Of a DNA stretch of 64,000 nucleotides, positions 8,021 through 31,391 are shown piece by piece. Position 1 is the stretch's first letter. Each line of letters begins with the position of its first letter. Source of the DNA: a virus. Lineage: Duplodnaviria > Caudoviricetes. The position numbers and the translations under genes were made by a program. Under the pieces are notes generated by a model that was given only the letters and a program-made list of their open reading frames with translations, had not been told where the DNA came from and did not search any database. Location of the stretch: IMG/VR virus record IMGVR_UViG_3300010167_000013. One strand, 5' to 3'.

Positions 8021-8200
8021 TATCACACACAAATAGAATATGGCATCCCTCTCAGGTTCCTGTGGTTAGACAGGCTATATTTCCGATATGCCCTATCGTA
8101 CTATTGTGCTTCTAATTTATTACTCCTAGTTCATTATTAAATATATTTTTATCCTATTAATCGTAATCCTTCTTTGAGAATATTTTTAGCAGCATTGTAG
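8021..8200 (-). ncRNA. TnpB omegaRNA (reRNA) with 3' guide TATTCTATTTGTGTGTGATA
   Basis: Downstream of tnpB: GTACGATAGGGCATATCGGAAATATAGCCTGT...CAGGAACCTGAGAGGGATGCCA fits the usual IS605 right-end scaffold pattern. The 5' boundary is approximate. Confidence 0.6.
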
Positions 8201-9279
8201 TCTCTATGGTGTTGGATACCACAGCTATCACAGGTCCAATGTTTCAGCCTCAACCCAACATCACCACGATTACCACAATTATTACAGGTCGTACTGGATG
8301 GGTAATACCTATCAACTTTCTGTAGTGTTCTCCCATACCACTCGCACTTGTATTCCAGCTGTCTTACTAGTTCACCTAGGGCTGTGTCATATATCGACTT
8401 ATTGATATCCTTGTACTTGGTTTTCATGCTTTGGATATCTAAATCTTCAATACAGATAATGTCATTGGTGTTAACTAGTGAACTAGTAACTTTGTGTAAT
8501 GTGTCATATCTCTGGTTAGTGATCTTCTCATATATTTTAGCTACCTTGATCCTAGCCTTGTTCCAGTTCTTACTACCTTTTACTTTCCTAGACAGTACTC
8601 TCTGAGCATTAGCTAGCTTGAGTTCATACTGCTTCAGATGCCTGTGGTTTTTGTATGTCTTTCCATTTGATGTAGTAATCAGCTTATTGATACCCAAATC
8701 TAACCCAATGGAGTTACCTGTGATAGGTAGAACCTTTGGTTCTACATCAGTACAACAGATAGAACAGTAGTACTTTCCACTAGGTACCTGTGATATAGTA
8801 GCATTCAGAATCCTACCAGAGATGTCACACCTTCCTCTAAACTTTACACTACCAAGTTTTGGTAGCTTGACAAAGTTACTCACTATCTGAATGTTATTAC
8901 CAGCAACATATTTAGTAGTATAGGACATACTCCTGTTCTTCTTACTCTTGAACCTAGGATAGCCCAGAGTGTCACCTAACTTTACTTTCCTGAAGAAGTT
9001 CTGAAAGGCCATATCTAGATTCTGCAGCGATGCCTGCAGTGCATGGGCATCCGGTTCTTGTAACCATTCCAATTCCTTCTTCAGCTTAGTTAACTCCCTA
9101 CTACAGCTATTGTATGTCATATAGCTCTTCTTCTCTTCATAGGTCTTATTCTCTTCATAGGTCTTATTCCTAAGGCATAAGAAATGGTTCCAAATGTACC
9201 TGCAACAACCAAATGTTTTCTGTATCTGTATTTGCTGTGAGTCATTTGGGTATATCCTAAACTTGTACGATCTATTCAT
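8149..9279 (-). CDS. tnpB: RNA-guided endonuclease TnpB
   Basis: N-terminal SYKFRIYP...KTFGCCRYIWN, RuvC-I GLDLG, RuvC-II IEDL, zinc finger CNNC...CDSC, RuvC-III RDYNAAKNI. Start ATG 9279 behind GGAGGTG. Contains an in-frame 18-bp duplication (NKTYEE x2, 9131-9166). Confidence 0.95.
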   Translation of the reverse strand: MNRSYKFRIYPNDSQQIQIQKTFGCCRYIWNHFLCLRNKTYEENKTYEEKKSYMTYNSCSRELTKLKKELEWLQEPDAHALQASLQNLDMAFQNFFRKVKLGDTLGYPRFKSKKNRSMSYTTKYVAGNNIQIVSNFVKLPKLGSVKFRGRCDISGRILNATISQVPSGKYYCSICCTDVEPKVLPITGNSIGLDLGINKLITTSNGKTYKNHRHLKQYELKLANAQRVLSRKVKGSKNWNKARIKVAKIYEKITNQRYDTLHKVTSSLVNTNDIICIEDLDIQSMKTKYKDINKSIYDTALGELVRQLEYKCEWYGRTLQKVDRYYPSSTTCNNCGNRGDVGLRLKHWTCDSCGIQHHRDYNAAKNILKEGLRLIG

Positions 9280-9301
9280 TATATTCTCACCTCCTACGTA
9301 T

Positions 9302-9310
9302 ATAATATAT
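9302..9310 (-). promoter_or_regulatory. Putative early promoter ATATATTAT driving tnpB
   Basis: Motif about 20 nt upstream of the tnpB start. A second variant (ATATATTCT) lies at 9333-9341. Confidence 0.55.
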
Positions 9311-9422
9311 AATCGAGAAATATGCATATCTAAGAATATATAATTACGTTTTACACTTCATTAGAAGTCTCCAGAACGAAGACATAAGTAATGACATCCC
9401 AATACCCAAGGAGGTTTCTATC

Positions 9423-10919: not shown

Positions 10920-13900
10920 ATGATGATGTACAAGTTGGAGAAAGACATATCCCTCTACAAAAATCAATTCGAAGATCTCGTTCTAAATATCTTCCAACGA
11001 CATCTCATGGAAAGACTGTCTATGGATCTTGATGGGTTGTTATTCAGAATAAAATACATGGTGAAGAACGATAAAGATCTAACGAAGCTTCCAGAAATGA
11101 AAAATCAATTCATTTCAAAGGCGCTAGAACTGAGAAGCATCTTCGGAGAAATCATGTACAATTTTCTGGTTGAACTAGTGGGATTCGGAGATAACTTCTC
11201 GAAAGACGATATCGAAGATCTCATGGCTCAAGATGTGAAAATGGATAATGTTCATGTGAGATTCAAAATGCTACTGTTGTCAGAGAATAAGAATTACCTG
11301 GATTATGTTGATGCCAGTATCGAAGATGGAAAAGTGTTCAATATGTTTCCAGATAAGTTCTTCAGGTACTATGTTGACTCATACAATGATGGGATAGCAA
11401 AAGCATATCCAGAATTATTTGAATCTAGACAACAAGACAGCATTGGTACAGGACATGATTCTGAAGTGTTCGTTCATTCTATGACCCTACAAACAACTGA
11501 GGATTGTAATCTCAACTGCTTTCCAGCTGGGACTAAGATCCTTATGGAAGATTTTTCTCACAAGAATATAGAAGATATAGAATTGGGAGACACAGTATTG
11601 GGGTTTGAAGAATTTAATGAATTCCAGCACCAAAGAAGTTTAATATCTACCATAGTTACCCAGTTATTTCACCATGATGAAAGCTGCTACAAGATTAGTC
11701 ATCCATCTTTTAAAGAGGATTTATATGTTACCCCGGAACATCCAATGCTTACAGCCCGCGGAGATTGGATACATGTCCGAGATCTTCGACCATCTGATGG
11801 GTTGCTAATGACAACATTTGACCCTGATGATTATTATCATACTAATGTTGATCATATCAACTATGTGAAAGGATACTTTATAGCTGGATGGCTCGGAGAT
11901 GGTTGTGTTATGAAACGTACCCAAAAAGATGGATATCGGCGATATTTCATGCGTTTTGTGGTCAAAGATATAGACATGACTGAACGAATGAAACGCTTCT
12001 CTGAAACTCTTGGGTTTAATTTCACAACGAATACTTTCAAGATGTCGCACAAAGATGGCTGTTATCGAGATACTTTATATTCAGGCAAGAGAGATGAGTA
12101 CGAAAGATGGGTCAAGCTATGTGAAGAGACATTTTCGGACAAACAAGCACTGAAGGATCCTGATTTTCTAATGGGATTCATGGCTGGATTTTATGATGCT
12201 GAAGGTGGTATCTGGGGTGCATGTATTAGGATTCACAACTCAGATAATAAACTCCTCCGCATTGTGGAGGCTGGTCTTAATTTTCTGAAAATAAAATGGG
12301 ACTATGATAAACCTCACCAGCCAGCTAATAAAATTGTATACACTCTTCGAATATTAGGCGGGTCACCAGATGTCCTAAAGTTTCTGAAATCCACCAGACC
12401 TGCGATTAAGAGGAAAGGTTCAGTCAATTTAGTTGGTAAGAGTTTATTCCAACGTATTGATGGATACACCATCGAGTATGCAAAATATGCAAAAACAGTG
12501 TATAATTTTGAGACGACGGAGCATACTTATATTGCTAACAGACTCCTGGTACACAACTGTAGCTACTGTTATATGTTCAACAAGAGTGATATGAGAATGA
12601 CCTTCGATATAGCCAAGAAATTCATTGATGAGTTATTGGCAGATAGATATGGTTACATCAATCGGTACAACTCTCCAGCGCTGATATTGGAGTTCATAGG
12701 TGGAGAGCCTCTGCTAGAAATTACATTGACAAGAAAAATCTACGAATACTTTCTGGACAGAACGTATGAATTGGAGCATCCATGGTTTAATCTTCACAGA
12801 CTCTCAATATGCTCCAATGGGCTACAATACTTTGATGAAGAAGTTCAATCGTTCTTCAGGGATTATGCCGGTAGTATATCATTCAATATATCCATAGACG
12901 GAAACAAGGAGTTGCATGACTCCTGTAGAATCCAGCCAAGTGGAGAAGGGAGTTATGATATCGACATGATTGCACTTAATCACTTCAACAGACACCATAC
13001 TCCAGAAAGAAATTCTAAAATGACTTTGGCTCCAGACAACATGAGATACTTATTTGATTCAGTAAAAAGCTTCATCGAAAATGGAATGATGACCATCAAC
13101 CTGAATTGTATTTTCGAGGAGGGATGGAACCAAGAAACAGCTCTTCTGGAATACAATGAATTGAAAAAGGTTGCCGATTACATTCTGGAAAATGATCTGG
13201 AGAATTTGTACATTGCTATCTTCAACGAGAGACAAGAAGATACATCAGAAAAGTCATATGACGGGAATTTCTGTTTCAAGGATGGTACTCAGGTGTTAGC
13301 TATCGATGGCCATCGTAACATAGAAGACCTGAATATCAATACTCTCTTGTACACTGCATCTGGTAGCATTCATAAAATTGTCAACATCAGTCAAAGGAAG
13401 TCTAGGAGTAATATGAAGATACATACTTCTGGAACATTTCCTATTGAATGCACTCGTGATCACAAGATATTTGCAAGAAAGATGATCCAAGAAAAAGGAG
13501 AAACATACTACGAAAAACCAGAATTTTATGAAGCTTCAGAACTTGTCGAAGGAGACTCAATCGCTCTTCCAATTCTAGATCTGTCACAGAATAAAAAGAA
13601 TTGGATAAACAACAACATCGCATATGCTCTTGGGGTATACTTACTATGTGGAACGATTAGTATGAATCGCATTGTGGTACCAGTCGATCCAGATAACAAG
13701 GTAGATGTTCGTGAGCATTTTCAGAGAGCCGGACTAAACATAACGACCGACAGACCTGACAGAGTAGAAATATATCGCCAAAAGTCAGAGCTGAACGATA
13801 ACTTCTTCAAACTATGTCTGAGGGCTGGAATTAGACCGAATGTCAAATCAGTTCCACAGATATTATTTGAATCCAAGAAGGATATAATTCAGGCCATGAT

Positions 13901-15866
13901 CAATGGATACTTCCAGGCAGGCGGATTTCAAGTAGCAGAAGGGAAAAACCATGAAGGGTTATTGAAAATAAGCATCATATCGAGACATCTGGCAAATGAT
14001 TTACTAATCCTCCTGAGATCTGTCAATCAATATCCAATATGCACCATGAGTCAAAAACCAATCACAATTGATGTAGATGGATCTAAGATGTCGTTCGATG
14101 AATCATATGGGATATCATATAACCCAATCAACTCATACCTGAAAGATCATTATGAGATAGATCAAGATCACTATGTCGCATGGGTTGGTATCAGATCAAT
14201 TGCATTTGTAAATGACGAATGGGAAGTTTTCTGTCCTACCGTAATGCCGATAAATGAAGGTGAAAAAGAAGAGCACACTATCATTGCAAACAATGCTGCA
14301 GTGAACCAATGTTTTCGTGGTGACATGCAAGTGTTGACGATCAATGGGAGCAAGAATATCAGAGACCTTCATGTTGGAGAACTATTGTATACTGCATCAG
14401 GTAGTATTCACAAAGTAACAAGAATGACAAAACGGTTCAATGAAAGTAATAGGAAGGTAACAGCAGCTGGAATTTTTCCAATTCATTGCACTGATGATCA
14501 CAAGGTATTTGCTAAAAAATTTCTATATATGGGATGGAAAGGTGTTCTTCACTATTCAGACCCAGGGTTCTACCCTATTTCGGAATTGAAGAAAGGTGAT
14601 AGAATGGCACTACCTATACTTCAATTACCAGAAAAACAAGTAGAAAAATGGTTGACTGAAGAACTAGCATATGCATTTGGAGTATATCTTGCAGATGGTC
14701 ATGGTTACACAGATAGTATAGTTATTACTCCAGGATATGATGACGACAAGAGTTACATGAATATGCTCAGAGGGTCTGGACTAACAATAAGTGTGAGTGA
14801 AATGCGTACCAGCATGAGGTATGATATTCACAAAAATTCATCTGAAGCAAATAGAAAGTTTATCGAACTATGTCTGATGTCTGGTGTTACATCCTGGACC
14901 AAACATATCCCAGAAACTATTTTCAACTCACCAAAGAATATTGTCCAGAAAGTTCTTGATGGATACCTGGAAACTGATGGATGGCAAGTTCCAGAAGATA
15001 AACATATTGCAGGAATGATCAAAGTCAATACGGTCTCTCAACATCTTGCTAGTGATATTCTAGTTCTTCTACGAGCTGTCGGAGAGTACCCTACTTGTTA
15101 CCTAAATAACAGGGCTGGTACTATGATCATTGAGGGTAGAACTGTAAATGTGCGAGATCGATATGAAATATATTATAACCCGACTAGGCCCAATGGGAAT
15201 AATATGTTTAAGAATGATGATCAATATAGTCTGATGTGGACAGGGATCAGAGATATTCAAAATGATGAAAACTATGATGTATATTGTCCTACAGTATCCC
15301 CTCTCACAAACGACCTAAAAGAAGAGCATTCCATAATTGTTAATGGTCTCGGTGCCCAGAACTGCGGCGGGACTGGAGCAATGTTATCATTAAGACCAAA
15401 TGGACAGTTCTATCCATGTATCAGATACATGCCATCTTCTGTTGGAGATAATGTAGATGATCTTTGCATTGGGACTGTGCAAGATGGAATGGTAGGAAGG
15501 GAAGAAAACTCTGAGGTTCTAAAATTATTAGACAGTGTAACACGTAGATCTCAATCTAATGATATATGTTATAAGTGTCCTATTGGAAATGACTGTGCTC
15601 ATTGCTCAGCGATGTCGCAGACAGTTTATGGAACTCCTAACAAAAAAGGATCTTTCATTTGTATTCAGATGATAGCAGAAGCACTAGCAAATGTTTATTA
15701 TTGGAATAGATTGTTGATTCATAAACCTCATTACGATCTTCCAGTTCGCAAGAATAATGTTCCTGACGAATGGTCGTTACTAGTGGTAGATGAAGTAGAA
15801 TTAGAAAACTTAAAGCTTCTTGAATGTATGGCGATGATCAAAAAAATAGAATACAGTGGGACTTAA
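10920..15866 (+). CDS. Radical SAM/SPASM peptide maturase, CXXX-repeat-target type (TIGR04115-like), with three inteins; about 604 aa after splicing
   Basis: Spliced sequence gives TLQTTEDCNLN|CSYCY, EFIGGEPLLE, HPWFNLHRLSICSNG, ISIDGNKELHDSCR, NF|CGGTGAML...FYPCIRY and CYKCPIGNDCAHCSA...FICIQ. Confidence 0.85.
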   Translation: MMMYKLEKDISLYKNQFEDLVLNIFQRHLMERLSMDLDGLLFRIKYMVKNDKDLTKLPEMKNQFISKALELRSIFGEIMYNFLVELVGFGDNFSKDDIEDLMAQDVKMDNVHVRFKMLLLSENKNYLDYVDASIEDGKVFNMFPDKFFRYYVDSYNDGIAKAYPELFESRQQDSIGTGHDSEVFVHSMTLQTTEDCNLNCFPAGTKILMEDFSHKNIEDIELGDTVLGFEEFNEFQHQRSLISTIVTQLFHHDESCYKISHPSFKEDLYVTPEHPMLTARGDWIHVRDLRPSDGLLMTTFDPDDYYHTNVDHINYVKGYFIAGWLGDGCVMKRTQKDGYRRYFMRFVVKDIDMTERMKRFSETLGFNFTTNTFKMSHKDGCYRDTLYSGKRDEYERWVKLCEETFSDKQALKDPDFLMGFMAGFYDAEGGIWGACIRIHNSDNKLLRIVEAGLNFLKIKWDYDKPHQPANKIVYTLRILGGSPDVLKFLKSTRPAIKRKGSVNLVGKSLFQRIDGYTIEYAKYAKTVYNFETTEHTYIANRLLVHNCSYCYMFNKSDMRMTFDIAKKFIDELLADRYGYINRYNSPALILEFIGGEPLLEITLTRKIYEYFLDRTYELEHPWFNLHRLSICSNGLQYFDEEVQSFFRDYAGSISFNISIDGNKELHDSCRIQPSGEGSYDIDMIALNHFNRHHTPERNSKMTLAPDNMRYLFDSVKSFIENGMMTINLNCIFEEGWNQETALLEYNELKKVADYILENDLENLYIAIFNERQEDTSEKSYDGNFCFKDGTQVLAIDGHRNIEDLNINTLLYTASGSIHKIVNISQRKSRSNMKIHTSGTFPIECTRDHKIFARKMIQEKGETYYEKPEFYEASELVEGDSIALPILDLSQNKKNWINNNIAYALGVYLLCGTISMNRIVVPVDPDNKVDVREHFQRAGLNITTDRPDRVEIYRQKSELNDNFFKLCLRAGIRPNVKSVPQILFESKKDIIQAMINGYFQAGGFQVAEGKNHEGLLKISIISRHLANDLLILLRSVNQYPICTMSQKPITIDVDGSKMSFDESYGISYNPINSYLKDHYEIDQDHYVAWVGIRSIAFVNDEWEVFCPTVMPINEGEKEEHTIIANNAAVNQCFRGDMQVLTINGSKNIRDLHVGELLYTASGSIHKVTRMTKRFNESNRKVTAAGIFPIHCTDDHKVFAKKFLYMGWKGVLHYSDPGFYPISELKKGDRMALPILQLPEKQVEKWLTEELAYAFGVYLADGHGYTDSIVITPGYDDDKSYMNMLRGSGLTISVSEMRTSMRYDIHKNSSEANRKFIELCLMSGVTSWTKHIPETIFNSPKNIVQKVLDGYLETDGWQVPEDKHIAGMIKVNTVSQHLASDILVLLRAVGEYPTCYLNNRAGTMIIEGRTVNVRDRYEIYYNPTRPNGNNMFKNDDQYSLMWTGIRDIQNDENYDVYCPTVSPLTNDLKEEHSIIVNGLGAQNCGGTGAMLSLRPNGQFYPCIRYMPSSVGDNVDDLCIGTVQDGMVGREENSEVLKLLDSVTRRSQSNDICYKCPIGNDCAHCSAMSQTVYGTPNKKGSFICIQMIAEALANVYYWNRLLIHKPHYDLPVRKNNVPDEWSLLVVDEVELENLKLLECMAMIKKIEYSGT
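11517..12557 (+). mobile_element. Intein 1 (347 aa) with LAGLIDADG homing endonuclease, inside the CxxxCxxC motif
   Basis: Starts CFPAGT, block B TPEHP, endonuclease motifs IAGWLGDG and MAGFYDAEG, ends LLVHN before Cys. Confidence 0.92.
13272..14309 (+). mobile_element. Intein 2 (346 aa), ends in Gln, degenerate endonuclease
   Basis: Starts CFKDGT, block B TRDHK, ends AAVNQ. The LAGLIDADG positions read GVYLLCG and NGYFQAGG (acidic residues lost). Confidence 0.85.
14310..15362 (+). mobile_element. Intein 3 (351 aa), directly abutting intein 2
   Basis: Starts CFRGDM, block B TDDHK, endonuclease motifs GVYLADG and DGYLETDG, ends GAQN before CGGTG. Confidence 0.88.
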
Positions 15867-16892: not shown

Positions 16893-16956
16893 AATTGAAT
16901 GAAGGATGATACGAAACCGAGATTATAAAGGAACATGTCATAATGGAGGTGATTGC

Positions 16957-19900
16957 GTGAATAGGGATTTATACTCGAATACAGAGTTTACCAAATTGAA
17001 GGAAGACTTGAATAAAGAAATAAAAAGACGGGCCACATTCAAGTGGTGGGACCCACTAGCTACTCCAAAGGTAGGACAGGATAGATCATCCCCATTATCG
17101 TTACCTGATATCGGAAAAAGAATGTTGGTAACAGATGAAACTTACACCATCAACAATTCTTCTGAGGGATCTATTGAATGTACTAGAAACATACACTATC
17201 CTGCTCATGGGGAGAATCCTTCTGGAGAGATACCAAATACCCCCTTGAATAACAAAGAAGGACAACTCAAGACTTCCGCTGCCAGATTAGATGCCGATGA
17301 GATAAAAAACTATCTGGTTGGATTGTCGAAGATAATGGACATAAATCTTTTCTATGGAAGAGATGAAGTTCCTGGCACTGCATTTCGTGATCCTATTGGA
17401 ATAGAGAATGCATTGAAAGCTGCTCAGAATAGCAAGCTGAATGCTCCACTTCATCAATCTGATATTGAACCAGCAAGAATAGATCCTAGCAAGGAAGATC
17501 TAACTGTTGTAACATATCATATTGATGGTGGGATATATGTAATGCCATCTGGAGAATACGATGGGGAGGAACTATTGAAGAAGATGGGTCCTGATGAAAC
17601 CAACTTCTTTGATGATCACGGAGCTAAGGTATATGATACCGGGAAGAAAACTCCTGATGGACAACCTATTTTGGTAAGTGATTCTAACTACAAGCCAATG
17701 AATCCGTTTGTATCTCCTCTTGTTAATAGAAACTGGAATGATCAACAGAATAGTCGTGAAGATCTTCCAACCAAAAGAGAAGAGGGTGGAGTTCCATCTA
17801 CTAGGTTTGGCCCTAATCCTAGAAATCCTCAGCAGGGAAATCAGTACAGACCTAGACCTGTATTCGGCGGAGTTCTTGGAGCATGTAATTCATCGTGCAC
17901 AGGATTATGTTTTAAGACATGTGATAATGAATGCAGTGAGAATTGCACTACAACGTGCTGGTCTAGATGTGGCAACGCTTGCACGTCAAGCTGCGGGAAT
18001 GTCTGTACCGGGTGCAACTCGATGTGCTATACCTCCTGTAAAACTAAATGCGAAAATAGCACGGGATATTCATGCCTGAATGTTGGAGCCAAGACAGTAA
18101 ACATAGTTCCTGTTGGTAGTGCTCACGGATCATCTGGTGCACCGGGATCAGCTACCTGGCCAAAAAACACAATATCATATACTACCTACAAATGTAATGG
18201 TTGCGCATATACATGTCAATTCTACCCGAATAAACGTACCACATGTTGGGATGCAGGTTGTCAGGAGTTATGTTTCACGTCATGCAGAACAGCATGTTCC
18301 ACAACATGCTTTGGAGGATGTATAGATAACGCTGCTCAGGATACTGGGAAGTACGGAACTGGAAAAGGCCGTGGATGTTCTAGTGGATGTACTGTCAACT
18401 GTGTAGGAGCTTGTCAAGGAGTATGCATAGGCGAATGCGTTCACACATGCTTCCATGCATGCAAGGCGTTATGCTACGATAACTGTTCGTGGAAATGTCA
18501 TACCAGCTGTGGATCCGGTTGTGCCAATGGATGTAAAAACGGATGTACTGGATGTCACTCAACATGCGCTGGTAGTTGTATTGGAGAAAACAATGCATCC
18601 ATATGTATTGGATGTGGAAAATCTGGTGGATGTACATCTACATGCCAACATGATTGCAATAAGAATTGTATCGGCTGGGGATGTAGATCAATATGTGGAA
18701 CAGAATCGGCTGGATCTTGTGAATCTAATTGTCGTCTGAGTTGTATGTCATCTTCATGCACTTCAATGTGTGGAAATGCTTGTGCGTCTCAATGTACAAC
18801 ATGTGTGAATAACTGTGGAGCTCAATGCGGGTGTTGTTCATCGATGTGTAGCACTGGATGTGAAGCTGCATGTAATATTACATGCACTGAAGAATGTCAG
18901 AATGCATGTACTACATATTGTTACATGTCATGCACTGAATCCTGTGGAAGTTGTTTCAAAGCAGGTACATTAATAGAAACTGAACTTGGACTTGTCCCCA
19001 TCGAGGAGGTTAAAGTAGGGGATATGGTTTTAACACAAAGCGGAAAATATCATAGAGTTTATAAAAATTTTGTAAGAGAAGCTAATGATATTATCTCTAT
19101 TAGAGCAGTAGGAACTCCAATAATTCATACCACAGAAGAACATCCGTTCTGGGTTAAGAAATATATTGGCTTAGGAAAAAAAGAAGGGAAACTTCAACAG
19201 TTGTATTCAGATCCAGAATGGGTGGAAGCTAGAGATCTTAAATCTCGTGATAAATTATCATTGTATACACCTCCAATTGGAAATATTGAAGTTGATCCTG
19301 GTATAGCTTATATGGTCGGAAGGTGGCTTGGAGACGGATGGAGAAGCGATGAAAAAAGCCATAATGGACAATATTATCCAAGGTTTAGTATTTGCTGTGG
19401 AAAACATGAAATAGATGATTTCGAACTTAAATTATATCAATCTAATATTGAATATACTAAATCTACTAAAGAGACATCAGATAATTATAGGATACCATCT
19501 ATGATTACCAGGGATAGGTATTGGTGTAATAATGATGAACTTATTTCAATCCTAAAAGAATGCGGAAAATATTCTTATGGTAAAAAAATAAGTAAAGAAA
19601 TTTACAATTGGAATATAAATTCATTGATGCATTTACTTCAAGGGTATTCTGATGCAGATGGACATTTCGATGAAGATCATTCATCAATTGTAATCTCAAC
19701 TGTAAGTAAAGAGCTTGCTCTTGGAGTATCAACTATTATGAGAATGATTGGAAGAAATCCATCATGCCATGTGAAAGAATATCCTACCGGCAAAATGTAT
19801 ATTGAAGGCCGTGAAGTTAACGTAAGAACTGTATACACTTTAAAAATGTTTACGGGAGAATATACCAGAAATTATTCTGAATATGATTATGATAATAATA

Positions 19901-20784
19901 CGACATGGTCTAGTGTTAGATTAGTAAATATTCCGGATGATTCATATACTGTATATAATTTATCAGTAGAAGACAATCCAACATTCTATGCTGATGGAGT
20001 TTTGGTTCATAATTGCTCGGATATGTGCTATTCATGTGTTGGAATGTGCATCGGTATTTGTTCGGTGAAATGTGAGAACGGATGTTCATCGTGTGATACC
20101 AACTGTGGATGGTGGTGCGACTCTACATGCAACAGACAATGTTTCAATAATTGTAGCGACAGATGCATCAGCACATGCAGTGGATCATGTAGTACTTACC
20201 TTGAAGCTAATACAACCACACCACTCTCTGGTCCAGAGAAACCACCAACATCAGAAGGATATCAAACACCAAATCCATCAGATAGAGAAGAAGAAAGAGA
20301 ATCATTCAAATTAATCTCCTCTGATGTAAAACCAAAACCACCAGTAACACCACCTGGTGAAAAAGATTACTTGGTCCATGTATTCGCTGATAAAGATAAC
20401 AACTTCCAAGTTGTATCTCCGTATGATGTGATAAAATGGATGATTCACTCAACAGTTTGCATCGGTGGAGTGTGGAGCATATACGAGGATACTGGAGAAG
20501 TATTTGCTGTAAGTGCTGCACTATCTGCAACACTGGTCCAAATGTATCCGAACATCGATGGTGGTAGAGGAATTATATTGATAACTCTGTTTGATAATCC
20601 TGAGTTCCCAATTAACCCATTCAAGGATATCTATGTTGAACTTCCAAGAAATCTTGAATACAAGATAATTCCAAACGTAGAAGGAGACATCATAATTCTA
20701 ATCCAGAGAGAATCCTTTGGACCATTCGAAACTGTCATTGACGAATACGGAAAGATGAGATTTATTCAAGGAATCAGGGAGTGA
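16957..20784 (+). CDS. Large Cys-rich CxxxC-repeat protein, putative radical SAM modification target, with one intein
   Basis: About 89 Cys (hand count), mostly in CxxxC/CxxC register. Probable GTG start at 16957 behind GGAGGT. Lies about 1 kb downstream of the maturase. Confidence 0.8.
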   Translation: MNRDLYSNTEFTKLKEDLNKEIKRRATFKWWDPLATPKVGQDRSSPLSLPDIGKRMLVTDETYTINNSSEGSIECTRNIHYPAHGENPSGEIPNTPLNNKEGQLKTSAARLDADEIKNYLVGLSKIMDINLFYGRDEVPGTAFRDPIGIENALKAAQNSKLNAPLHQSDIEPARIDPSKEDLTVVTYHIDGGIYVMPSGEYDGEELLKKMGPDETNFFDDHGAKVYDTGKKTPDGQPILVSDSNYKPMNPFVSPLVNRNWNDQQNSREDLPTKREEGGVPSTRFGPNPRNPQQGNQYRPRPVFGGVLGACNSSCTGLCFKTCDNECSENCTTTCWSRCGNACTSSCGNVCTGCNSMCYTSCKTKCENSTGYSCLNVGAKTVNIVPVGSAHGSSGAPGSATWPKNTISYTTYKCNGCAYTCQFYPNKRTTCWDAGCQELCFTSCRTACSTTCFGGCIDNAAQDTGKYGTGKGRGCSSGCTVNCVGACQGVCIGECVHTCFHACKALCYDNCSWKCHTSCGSGCANGCKNGCTGCHSTCAGSCIGENNASICIGCGKSGGCTSTCQHDCNKNCIGWGCRSICGTESAGSCESNCRLSCMSSSCTSMCGNACASQCTTCVNNCGAQCGCCSSMCSTGCEAACNITCTEECQNACTTYCYMSCTESCGSCFKAGTLIETELGLVPIEEVKVGDMVLTQSGKYHRVYKNFVREANDIISIRAVGTPIIHTTEEHPFWVKKYIGLGKKEGKLQQLYSDPEWVEARDLKSRDKLSLYTPPIGNIEVDPGIAYMVGRWLGDGWRSDEKSHNGQYYPRFSICCGKHEIDDFELKLYQSNIEYTKSTKETSDNYRIPSMITRDRYWCNNDELISILKECGKYSYGKKISKEIYNWNINSLMHLLQGYSDADGHFDEDHSSIVISTVSKELALGVSTIMRMIGRNPSCHVKEYPTGKMYIEGREVNVRTVYTLKMFTGEYTRNYSEYDYDNNTTWSSVRLVNIPDDSYTVYNLSVEDNPTFYADGVLVHNCSDMCYSCVGMCIGICSVKCENGCSSCDTNCGWWCDSTCNRQCFNNCSDRCISTCSGSCSTYLEANTTTPLSGPEKPPTSEGYQTPNPSDREEERESFKLISSDVKPKPPVTPPGEKDYLVHVFADKDNNFQVVSPYDVIKWMIHSTVCIGGVWSIYEDTGEVFAVSAALSATLVQMYPNIDGGRGIILITLFDNPEFPINPFKDIYVELPRNLEYKIIPNVEGDIIILIQRESFGPFETVIDEYGKMRFIQGIRE
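17884..20190 (+). repeat. CxxxC amino-acid repeat array, interrupted by an intein
   Basis: For example CNSSCTGLCFKTCDNECSENCTTTCWSRCGNAC and CSDMCYSCVGMCIGICSVKC. Confidence 0.9.
18952..20013 (+). mobile_element. Intein 4 (354 aa) with LAGLIDADG endonuclease
   Basis: Starts CFKAGT, block B TEEHPF, motifs VGRWLGDG and LQGYSDADG, ends VLVHN before Cys. Confidence 0.92.
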
Positions 20785-28113: not shown

Positions 28114-28457
28114 CTATCCTCCCCATACATAAATATACTAATCACTAAGTTGTCGTCCAGTATGTGTGGTTCTGGAGGAAGGTTATTGTGTGTCTTAGAT
28201 CTACCGAACTTGTTGTGGTGGTACAACCTCACACAATTTCTGATGATATCATTTCCATACTTTGTGTCATTGATATATGCTAATTCATTGATGGTGAGTA
28301 AGGTTTCTCCGTCATAACTATTGAGGTCCTTCATCGTGACAATGTAATCAATAACAGTGGCTAGGACTTCTTCAGTGGTTCCGAATTCTCTGAATTGATT
28401 TACCAGATCTAGTGAGAGTTTCTTATCCAGTGTAGATTGATTTACTGACATTCGCAA
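28110..28457 (-). CDS. Hypothetical protein in the radical SAM operon
   Basis: Overlaps the end of the radical SAM gene. Confidence 0.6.
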   Translation of the reverse strand: MRMSVNQSTLDKKLSLDLVNQFREFGTTEEVLATVIDYIVTMKDLNSYDGETLLTINELAYINDTKYGNDIIRNCVRLYHHNKFGRSKTHNNLPPEPHILDDNLVISIFMYGEDR

Positions 28458-29773
28458 CCAACCTCCCCTAGATCCAAATATGCATTTATCAAATAATCAC
28501 GGTAGGTATCTCCCTTATTTTTGATTAGTGCATCAAGTATTCCTAGTTCATCATAGTACTCATACAAGAATTTGAACTTGGATTGATATAATTTGCATAC
28601 TGATTCCACTGGCATGAATACTTCCTTGTTGGTCTCATAGTTGGAACCTAGGCAACCTTTTGTACAGAACGATTTGATTGGACATGAATAGCACTTCAGC
28701 TGAAATGCTGCTGGAAGAGATTTGATCGATAGATACTGTGTCACAAATTCCCCTTCGATATCAATAATCTTTTCTTGGTTTTCATCCAAGATAAACCTAC
28801 CAGCTATGAATTCTGGATACATCAATCGGTGACATGGAACTACAGTTAGGTCTGCCATTCTGACAGCTATTGATTTCTGAATGCTGCATGATATTGCATC
28901 GTCGTATCTTTTATTGGCATTTCTAAGAATCAATGCAGTAATGTCTTCTGGTCCATTCACTAAGTTATCAACATATCTCTTAGCATCGTAGTCAAAATAT
29001 TCCATCTTTTTGTCTATCATATGTTTCAGAAAGTTGATATAGTGAGCGATGGATTCCTCTGTCCATCCATCGTTCCTTACTTCCAACATATTTAGTTTGA
29101 ATTTCTCCCCATGATCACCGAGCATTTCGATGAACCAATCCCAGTTGTCAGGCCATTCCTCAATATTGTTATGATGCACCATCGCATGAAAGCTATAATT
29201 ATACTTCCTTGCAAATGCCATGAGTTTCTCGTAGTACTCATCGCCTCTGGACTGATTCTTACTCTTGTATGGTCTATTACATTCCATGAACTTCCCGTCA
29301 TCAGAGATAGATAGATATACTCGTTTACTGGTATCAATGAACTTCTCAACGATATCTTCGACTCTTCTTGTCTTCTCATCATCCAGGATAAAAGAATAGT
29401 TTGTTGGAATATCAACATACTGGAACAGAGTTGGGCACTCTATCATTTTCTGGTGAACTAGATCTAGTACCTGGAATCCTATTTCTTGAGAAAATATTTC
29501 TCCAGAGAAAAGGGACAACCTACCTTGGTACTCATTCTCTATCAAGAAGTCTAAAAATATTTCAGTATTCCTCAGAATGCTTTCACCGTTCTCAAATACA
29601 GATGATGGATACAGTTGATGCCCATATCTATGCATGTAACAGTAGGTGCATGCCTGATCACATTCTGGTGATAGTATGAGTTCAATGGATGGGATTGAAT
29701 TATTAGCCCCACTGAGACCTCTCATCAGATAACTCTTCAAGAGCAAATCATTTTCCTTCTGATATGATATCAT
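28442..29773 (-). CDS. Radical SAM protein with SPASM domain
   Basis: CDQACTYC, LFSGE, ISDDG. SPASM cysteines SCSIQ...VPCHR...CYSCPIKSFCTKGCLG...VCK. Confidence 0.88.
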   Translation of the reverse strand: MISYQKENDLLLKSYLMRGLSGANNSIPSIELILSPECDQACTYCYMHRYGHQLYPSSVFENGESILRNTEIFLDFLIENEYQGRLSLFSGEIFSQEIGFQVLDLVHQKMIECPTLFQYVDIPTNYSFILDDEKTRRVEDIVEKFIDTSKRVYLSISDDGKFMECNRPYKSKNQSRGDEYYEKLMAFARKYNYSFHAMVHHNNIEEWPDNWDWFIEMLGDHGEKFKLNMLEVRNDGWTEESIAHYINFLKHMIDKKMEYFDYDAKRYVDNLVNGPEDITALILRNANKRYDDAISCSIQKSIAVRMADLTVVPCHRLMYPEFIAGRFILDENQEKIIDIEGEFVTQYLSIKSLPAAFQLKCYSCPIKSFCTKGCLGSNYETNKEVFMPVESVCKLYQSKFKFLYEYYDELGILDALIKNKGDTYRDYLINAYLDLGEVGCECQ

Positions 29774-31236
29774 GCGAACATCTCCTTCTTACTATCTCTG
29801 AGGTGTCTTTCGTACAGTAATTCAAATGTTCCATTCAACAATAACTTAGCCATTGACGTATCGGGAACAAGGAAATGATTTGTTATCTGCAAATTATGAA
29901 TTATGCATTCATTGATCCTCTTGAGGAATATAACAGCTCTATTCCTCATCTTCTTGCTATTCTTGAACATTGGACTTATTTGACCAGCCTGTGCTAATTC
30001 ATAGACTAGTGCCGAGATAGCTGAGAATGTTATTAATGCTCCTGCTCTGGTGGCATATGCCTCCATATTTTTTACCTTGGCAACATTCTCTGGAGAGGTA
30101 TCATTGATATTTAGCGATAGTAGATTTGAATTTCTTTCAAACATATATTTTGAATTGCGTTGCTTCGGAACTACCTTTCGATCAAAGATTGTACCTTCTA
30201 TCTTGCTATTCACAAGTGAATCTTCGTAGAACTTTGTGCTCAACATCCCAGTAGTCTTTGAACATACCCCATATGTTTTCCCATCGGGATGGAGTCCAAT
30301 GGTACTATACCCTCCGGAGCAACAACTATATCCAACATTATCAATGGTGGTATTCGGGTTTTCCATTTGATCGTATATTGTAGGGAATTCTTGGTCTAAC
30401 CATAGCATGGTATCATACAATGGTAAGAACAGCTGATCCCTATTTCTATCACTAATATCAAGTACCATCTTGACGAACTCAGCTAACTTCTTACCATCTT
30501 CTTGAGTGTATTCCCCAGGAGCAACAAAGTTTGGGATAGACATCATTTGAATATCTAAATTATTGGATGTTGGTATGTTATTCAATCCAACATGTAGATC
30601 CTCAAAGAACTTGTAGTATTTTATCACGGATTCTTCATCTACTAAAACATTTGTTATTGTGTCCATACATAGTGTAGATTTCGCGATTATTGATACACCA
30701 ACATTTCCTGGAACACTTGAGTCCAATAGATATACAAGAGGTTTGAGATTATTGACCACGGTCTCAGTTACCCCTGATTTCTGATTTGATATGAACAGTC
30801 TATGACGATCTGTTACCTCGGATGGTCCGTCAAGTGACACCTGAATATGGACATGAAACTCTCTGTTCATATCCTTGTATCTGTAGTTCTTCATTATGTC
30901 AACAAATCTACCTAATTCAGTAATATTGGTGGTGAGGTTAGTGAGAAGGGTAAAGTGATACAGATTCGGAAACTCATCCAAGTAGGTATCTAATTTGTCA
31001 TTGAGTAGGGACAGATTAAGGAGTAATTCTCCTCCAGTAATATATAGCTGGGTGAGGTGATGTCTGTTCTCTCCATAAATCTTCTTCAATGATTCAAGGA
31101 GGATATTCTCCTTCAGAGCTTTCCTGACTACTTTGTCGTAGTCAAAGATTGCTTTGTTTTTGTGAATGTAGCAATAATCGCACTTCAAGTTACATTTAGT
31201 GCTCAACGCAATGTGAACTACATTTGGTTCAATCAT
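29770..31236 (-). CDS. Radical SAM protein with reduced (twitch-like) auxiliary Cys domain
   Basis: CNLKCDYCY, ITGGE, LLTN, QVSLDGP...DRHR and CCSGG...GVC...EC. Likely start 31236 (ORF open to 31293). Confidence 0.85.
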   Translation of the reverse strand: MIEPNVVHIALSTKCNLKCDYCYIHKNKAIFDYDKVVRKALKENILLESLKKIYGENRHHLTQLYITGGELLLNLSLLNDKLDTYLDEFPNLYHFTLLTNLTTNITELGRFVDIMKNYRYKDMNREFHVHIQVSLDGPSEVTDRHRLFISNQKSGVTETVVNNLKPLVYLLDSSVPGNVGVSIIAKSTLCMDTITNVLVDEESVIKYYKFFEDLHVGLNNIPTSNNLDIQMMSIPNFVAPGEYTQEDGKKLAEFVKMVLDISDRNRDQLFLPLYDTMLWLDQEFPTIYDQMENPNTTIDNVGYSCCSGGYSTIGLHPDGKTYGVCSKTTGMLSTKFYEDSLVNSKIEGTIFDRKVVPKQRNSKYMFERNSNLLSLNINDTSPENVAKVKNMEAYATRAGALITFSAISALVYELAQAGQISPMFKNSKKMRNRAVIFLKRINECIIHNLQITNHFLVPDTSMAKLLLNGTFELLYERHLRDSKKEMFA

Positions 31237-31391
31237 TAGAATGCCTCTTTTCTTTTCTACCATCCGATTACTAGTAATTAATGACATACTCACAGTATTT
31301 TCCTGATGGTTGAAATTTTATATCATTGGTCTACCATCACGAGGAATTTATACTGATACATAATATTCAACCTAATGAGGGAGTGATAATA

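Follow-up and report, generated by a model that had tools for sequence, protein, structure and literature searches.

Two same-site inteins joined head to tail in a phage radical SAM maturase, one cysteine belonging to both

A phage gene for a radical SAM/SPASM peptide maturase contains, at a single point within its SPASM domain, two inteins of one family joined head to tail with no extein residue between them. The gene lies in a stretch of 64,000 nucleotides (the window) from IMG/VR virus record IMGVR_UViG_3300010167_000013 (Duplodnaviria; Caudoviricetes). The insert is a genuine, in-frame, head-to-tail pair of allelic (same-site) class-1 LAGLIDADG inteins, referred to here as intein 2 (I2) and intein 3 (I3), and the first residue of I3 stands where an ordinary intein would have the first residue of its C-extein. 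A zero-spacing tandem of allelic inteins is unique so far and comes from one contig; neighboring inteins at different sites are already known. The features on which the argument turns are the following (window coordinates; + is the strand given).

10920-15866, +: host open reading frame (ORF), encoding a 1648-aa precursor, the radical SAM/SPASM peptide maturase of the phage with three inteins, in a single open frame
13272-14309, +: I2, 346 aa, from Cys1 to Asn-Gln; Thr61/His64 in block B, VFCPTV...EEHTIIAN in block F; Cys126 and Gly217 at the LAGLIDADG acidic positions
14310-15362, +: I3, 351 aa, from Cys1 to Gln-Asn; Thr61/His64 in block B, VYCPTV...EEHSIIVN in block F; LAGLIDADG residues Asp129 and Asp223 retained
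14310-14312, +: shared Cys codon, precursor residue 1131, both Cys1 of I3 and +1 nucleophile of I2, read straight from the sequence

Results

The translation of 13200-15450 runs ...EKSYDGNF|CFKDG...AAVNQ|CFRGD...GAQN|CGGTGAMLSLRPNGQFYPC, with an insert of exactly 697 residues (2091 bp) after ...DGNF, ending just before the first cysteine of the SPASM domain (CGGTG). The site is empty in ten related phage contigs of IMG/VR: their proteins read ...DGNF|CGAG..., or near variants of it, into CG[GA]...YPC, and both outer boundaries of the insert are therefore set independently of intein motifs. Within the insert, I2 and I3 align by BLASTP from first residue to last, with 40% identity across 347 columns (E = 7e-94), and a hidden Markov model (HMM) of inteins from the same site covers each of them over positions 1-348, leaving a spacing of 0 between the end of I2 and the start of I3. 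An earlier note on this DNA, made from the sequence alone, had described two paralogous inteins fused in this way, with the stretch LLYTASGSIHK common to both and with Cys1 of I3 doubling as the +1 residue of I2. The translation reads as it said, the common stretch is there, and Cys1 of I3 is the sole possible +1 nucleophile for I2. A nested arrangement (an intein within an intein, as in a twintron) was also considered and is ruled out, the two copies being collinear end to end at zero spacing.

The residues expected of splicing inteins are found in both copies. Each has Cys1, Thr61-x-x-His64 in block B, and V[FY]CPTV...EEH.II.N in block F, and Cys1, Thr61, and His64 are invariant in an 18-row alignment that includes I2 and I3. 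I2 ends in ...VNQ|C, the cysteine being Cys1 of I3, and I3 ends in ...AQN|C, the cysteine being the first of the SPASM domain. In 40 single inteins of the same site, 60 positions are conserved to 90% or more. I3 retains 55 of them and I2 retains 49, including Cys1, Thr61, Asp63, His64, the CPT of block F, and His335. By its full-length match to the family HMM (positions 1-348), the Hint module of I3 is complete. For I2, an AlphaFold2 model (predicted local distance difference test score, pLDDT, 90.1; predicted template modeling score, pTM, 0.90) confidently predicts a Hint plus LAGLIDADG fold. The best match to the model in a Foldseek search is TliVMA (7qsu; template modeling score 0.70, E = 3.5e-18), and the further nearest structures are PhoVMA, PI-SceI, PI-PkoII, and PI-PfuI, all of them inteins that bear endonucleases.

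The C-terminal ends look less orthodox. The penultimate histidine (G:6) is absent from both copies, with Asn in its place in I2 and Gln in I3, and I2 itself ends in Gln. The earlier note had singled out these traits. They are present, but they are not oddities of the pair, because a Gln end and a missing histidine are found clade-wide among single inteins, which presumably splice. The G:6 histidine is missing throughout the close clade (about 35 single inteins) and is found only in more distant same-site inteins, while Asn and Gln are about equally frequent as the last residue of the single inteins at the SPASM site (about 40 homologous maturases). Inteins with a terminal Gln or without His G:6 splice experimentally, although it is generally the cyclization of Gln that is slow, and in frequency at F:4 Cys ranks second (PMC4031507).

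Residues F:4-6 are invariably Cys-Pro-Thr in the SPASM-site clade that lacks the penultimate histidine (window about 14232-14240 and 15285-15293), and distant same-site inteins that end in His-Asn have Asn at F:4 (VYNLTV). The F:4 Cys and the loss of the penultimate histidine may be a compensating pair of changes. Assignment to the class 3 (WCT) inteins was tried and rejected: the F:4 Cys is present and invariant, but Cys1 is present as well, position B:12 is Val or Ile instead of Trp, and position G:5 is Ala or Val instead of Thr.

The two copies part company in their endonuclease domains. I3 keeps both acidic residues of its LAGLIDADG motifs, Asp129 (in YLADG) and Asp223 (in ETDG), at positions where Asp is kept in 35/40 and 33/40 of the single inteins, respectively. 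I2 has Cys126 and Gly217 there, and Ser replaces the histidine of KH[IF]P. Judged by these predicted catalytic residues, the endonuclease of I2 is degenerate and that of I3 is intact, the same contrast that the earlier note had drawn; from its sequence I3 looks fully active. Comparison with the single inteins of two homologous maturases, P0153 and P0156, puts numbers on the difference. In the N lobe of the Hint domain, I2 is 50-57% identical to I3 and the inteins of P0153 and P0156, which are 61-70% identical among themselves. In the endonuclease domain, the corresponding figures are 29-34% and 57-61%. In I2 the decay of the endonuclease domain is thus about twice that of the splicing domain, and by this measure it is selective: the splicing module has been kept far better than the nuclease.

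In phylogenetic trees, I2 and I3 fall into one clade with the single inteins of P0153 and P0156, with a support of 97 in a quick tree and 94/97 in a careful one. The best tree pairs I2 with the intein of P0156, but weakly (83/85). Forcing I2 and I3 together as sisters costs 3.6 log-likelihood units and is not rejected by the approximately unbiased (AU) test (p = 0.15), so the phylogeny would accommodate either duplication in place or the joining (or re-invasion) of a second allele. A recent duplication or gene conversion was rejected, as in no domain does I2 resemble I3 more than it does the inteins of P0153 or P0156. In the extein tree, the window groups with P0153 and P0156 (weak support, 86), the same two relatives given by the intein tree, and the intein lineage therefore looks largely vertical within the host clade. 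The terminal branch of the window in the extein tree (0.32) falls inside the spread seen among its relatives (median 0.23), which argues that the host enzyme is under ordinary constraint; such constraint would require the removal of all three inteins.

No second tandem came to light in a series of searches. About 40 homologous maturases carry one intein at the same site, and none carries two; these are the single-intein alleles that the earlier note had proposed to look for. I3 is 50-59% identical to about 30 of the single inteins (59% to that of P0153), and I2 is at most 43% identical to any intein. With the 697-aa pair as query, phmmer against 1.84 billion representatives yielded 1449 matches, and the best 150 of these included only single-intein ones. 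When 5.8 billion proteins (906-2884 aa) were searched by a word index, 37 matches came up beyond the window's own protein, none of them a second tandem: 36 of the 37 span about half of the query (50-54%), and the remaining one, P0005, spans 67% but by inspection has a single intein at the site. Shorter fragments across the I2|I3 junction were sought and none was found, nor did the exact 25-nt junction have a match in IMG/VR or JGI metagenome contigs. Regular-expression and family-HMM scans of 189 proteins detected a spacing of 0 only in the window, the next smallest being 23 aa. A search for related loci with I3 found none, megablast gave no match to known phages, and tblastn gave only distant inteins (22-28% identity). 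Searches of the open-access literature for tandem, adjacent, nested, or duplicated inteins turned up no natural case of zero spacing.

Discussion

The reading that best accommodates these results, to which we give a probability of about 0.6, is that I2 and I3 are two autonomous inteins, excised by two successive standard class-1 reactions, and that the endonuclease of I3 carries both of them in homing. Splicing competence, the order of the reactions, endonuclease activity, and co-mobilization are what we infer from the sequence. Chemically, two successive reactions would be sufficient, since each intein has a Cys at +1 whichever of them leaves first. If I3 were to leave first, the N-extein and I2 would be joined to the C-extein, giving the ordinary single-intein precursor of the relatives, from which I2 would splice next. 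If I2 were to leave first, its acceptor would be Cys1 of I3, and the product would be an equally ordinary precursor with I3 between the N-extein and the C-extein, from which I3 would then splice. What could not happen is that the two react simultaneously, because they are rivals for the Cys1131 thiol and for the Gln1130-Cys1131 bond. Were I2 held on Cys1131 as a branched ester, the first step of I3 would be blocked, and the N-S shift of I3 would turn the scissile Gln-Cys amide of I2 into a thioester, possibly with premature cleavage and no ligation. Our guess is that I3 goes first, because the Gln end of I2 is expected to cyclize slowly. The earlier note had offered a choice between ordered splicing and excision as a single unit of about 700 aa. 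The first alternative stands, with either order allowed, since simultaneous reaction is excluded; the second is unlikely, each copy having a complete Hint module.

With regard to homing, the endonuclease of I3 would cut an empty allele, and repair from the tandem donor would copy all 2091 bp, so that the endonuclease-dead I2 would be carried along. The suggestion that one endonuclease may mobilize both inteins thus survives in a more definite form: only that of I3 appears intact, and any mobility would come from I3 and would move the whole 2.1-kb insert. Free mobilization of I2 by I3 would fit the selective decay of the I2 nuclease.

Several observations weigh against this account of two working inteins. 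I2 lacks 11 of the 60 conserved positions, six of the 11 in its Hint domain, and its branch is long (1.4-1.5, versus 0.47 for I3). The contexts at -1 and +2 of both inteins differ from the ancestral ones, and the shared Cys and the Gln-Cys bond could lead to dead-end cleavage. Also, the tandem is known from a single contig, and the closest extein relative is 83% identical, from which it follows that close kin of the phage are unsampled.

Some of these points could also be read as signs that I2 is a relic that no longer splices. The inteins excised would then be I3 and intein 1 (located in the radical SAM domain; see below) alone, the 346-aa insert would stay in front of the SPASM cluster, and the enzyme would be inactive or its gene on the way to becoming a pseudogene. 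The lost positions and the longest branch in the clade are what one would expect of a relic; a Gln end together with a penultimate residue other than His can slow the third step of splicing (PMC4031507); and the same phage has other radical SAM genes. However, the known catalytic positions of I2 are all intact, its Hint domain is much better preserved than its endonuclease, and its predicted fold is a confident one. Moreover, the ORF is intact, and neither the extein nor I3 is evolving fast. On balance a dead I2 seems unlikely. A very improbable alternative is that the tandem is an artifact of assembly or sequencing that joined two strain alleles, one with I2 and one with I3. A singleton in a metagenome-derived contig invites the suspicion, but the junction ...GTGAACCAA|TGTTTTCGT... 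would be in neither single-intein allele, and long identical DNA is absent between the copies (their longest shared stretch is 74 nt at 76%), so that no path through an assembly graph could make it. The join is also in frame and codon-exact, and the GC fraction is uniform at 0.38. A chimera at 14309/14310 is thus unlikely, as the earlier note had judged from the divergence of the copies.

Two further possibilities accept the tandem but would have it work differently. The 697-aa block might splice as one unit, begun by Cys1 of I2 and completed by Asn351 of I3 together with the C-extein Cys, by way of paired or domain-swapped halves. The halves of paralogs might cross-complement, and with only one reaction the shared Cys would not be contested. 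But both the N and the C lobe of the Hint domain are complete in each copy, which folds on its own, and at the inner junction a perfect Gln|Cys site has been kept, with full blocks A and B in I3 and full blocks F and G in I2, all of them needless if the block were one unit, which makes the idea hard to credit. Or the pair might be a natural dual-intein cleavage module, with I2 cutting at the N end and I3 at the C end to yield a two-piece enzyme without ligation. Engineered tandem mini-inteins behave in this way (PMC4339811), but here every nucleophile needed for ligation is present, and in the relatives, with or without a single intein, the enzyme is continuous through the site. We consider such a module highly improbable.

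There are two ways in which the tandem may have arisen. An intein could have been duplicated in place, perhaps through illegitimate exchange of the Cys1 codon with that of the +1 Cys, after which the redundant endonuclease of I2 would have decayed fast. Or two diverged alleles could have been joined, either in a mixed infection or by way of cleavage at the junction between I2 and the C-extein. A more specific and quite tentative history is that I3, with its live endonuclease, re-invaded a site held by an old, endonuclease-dead I2, skipping the 'loss' step of the homing cycle, and that the pair has persisted as a co-mobilized cassette in which the shared cysteine enforces ordered, two-step splicing.

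The closest counterparts of the pair are the single LAGLIDADG inteins at the SPASM-CGG site (e.g., in P0153, P0156, and P0003), which have the same host family, the same insertion point, and the same motifs (CF.., T.DH, V[FY]CPTV, EEHTII.N), and which likewise end in Asn or Gln without a penultimate histidine. They differ in that there is one intein in each, whereas the window has two in tandem, the upstream one endonuclease-dead. Genes with neighboring inteins are known: MCM-a and MCM-d in Haloferax, Pol of T. kodakarensis (85 aa apart), and CDC21 of P. abyssi (48 aa apart) (PMC10643990, PMC8966425). These also have several inteins in one conserved gene, and they raise the same question of whether an intein without an endonuclease can home when aided by its neighbor. 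Their inteins, however, occupy separate sites with extein in between, each having a +1 nucleophile and a target to itself, while in the window the spacing is zero and there is one target and one shared cysteine. The Gln end of I2 and the lack of His G:6 in both copies have parallels in other inteins, Pab Pol II and CIV RNR among them (PMC4031507), but those are single inteins, and such traits do not explain a tandem. The engineered dual intein made of Ssp DnaE N159A and Ssp DnaB C1A (PMC4339811) does put two inteins in series on one polypeptide; it is artificial, however, composed of unrelated mini-inteins joined by a linker and mutated so as to cleave, not splice.

Further afield, an analogy can be drawn with introns. 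Group I introns that lack an endonuclease can home collaboratively, a nuclease-less selfish element being mobilized by an adjacent nuclease, and in twintrons one intron is nested within another. The likeness lies in an element without a nuclease that is moved by a neighboring one. The differences are that introns act at the level of RNA and that twintrons are nested, while I2 and I3 are strictly in tandem. The co-homing of introns is cited in PMC10643990.

Inteins are usually regarded as solitary, one to a site, each with its own flanking nucleophile. In the tandem, one cysteine is at once the first residue of I3 and the acceptor for I2, and one peptide bond is scissile for both, which makes it a natural system in which to study the coordination of the splicing steps and the outcome of their collision. 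The pair suggests that an intein whose endonuclease is dead can persist on that of its neighbor, a question left open in PMC10643990, and also that a homing site already occupied need not be closed to a second copy. It is of interest both to intein biochemists and to those who study selfish elements, and it bears on the homing cycle. Related but orthogonal inteins that work back to back without a linker would interest protein engineers as well.

Host gene and genomic surroundings

The host of the tandem is a radical SAM maturase of a jumbo phage, with the insert in the SPASM domain. Its gene (10920-15866) is an unbroken frame of 4.9 kb, or 1648 codons, in DNA of 39% GC. Apart from I2 and I3, the precursor contains these parts:

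11517-12557, +: intein 1, 347 aa, CFPAG...LLVHN; Pfam Intein_splicing, Hom_end_hint, and LAGLIDADG_3; of a family unrelated to I2 and I3
12558-13271, +: middle extein, 238 aa, ending in ...EKSYDGNF; 66-80% identical to ten IMG/VR phage homologs; matches TIGR04115 over model positions 16-237
15363-15863, +: C-extein, 167 aa, beginning at the first SPASM cysteine (CGGTGAMLSLRPNGQFYPC); TIGR04085 SPASM domain; matches TIGR04115 over model positions 252-359

The matches of the middle extein and the C-extein to TIGR04115, the radical SAM maturases with CXXX-repeat targets, have E-values of 2e-66 and 3e-21, respectively. An intein-free homolog of 606 aa (L005) scores 342.7 bits against the same model, slightly below its curated cut-off of 350. 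In the radical SAM CxxxCxxC motif, intein 1 sits ahead of the second Cys, where the exteins read CNLN|CSYC.

The maturase family as a whole is a hot spot for inteins, with at least five insertion sites, all of them at cluster-binding cysteines. Homologs have inteins at the second or the third Cys of CxxxCxxC, or at both, and in P0005 and P0010 two inteins are three residues (CSY) apart. Another recurrent site, in P0006, P0010, P0014, P0154, P0155, and P0181, lies within the SPASM cysteine cluster, some 80 residues further downstream than the SPASM-CGG site.

About 1 kb downstream of the maturase gene, window 16906-20784 (+) encodes a 1292-aa protein rich in CxxxC repeats (about aa 330-680 and 1040-1110), which is probably the substrate of the maturase. 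The run of repeats is broken by yet another full-length LAGLIDADG intein (aa 683-1036, window 18952-20013, CFKAG...VLVHN|C), which is 28% identical to I3 and matches the same-site family HMM end to end. In a relative (L011), the syntenic protein, of 885 aa, gives a faint match to PF27846 (Cxxx-repeat target).

The window is part of the genome of a large uncultured phage and encodes tail-fiber-like proteins, GroEL, a gene like TnpB-type transposases, and several radical SAM genes. At 8149-9327 (-), two genes upstream of the maturase, is a TnpB/IS605-like ORF of 392 aa that matches the phage transposase family phrog_506 (3e-126). A second radical SAM gene (phrog_1802, Pfam Radical_SAM) at 29770-31293 (-) adjoins a gene for a 443-aa protein at 28442-29773 (-), and the phage therefore has more than one radical SAM cassette.

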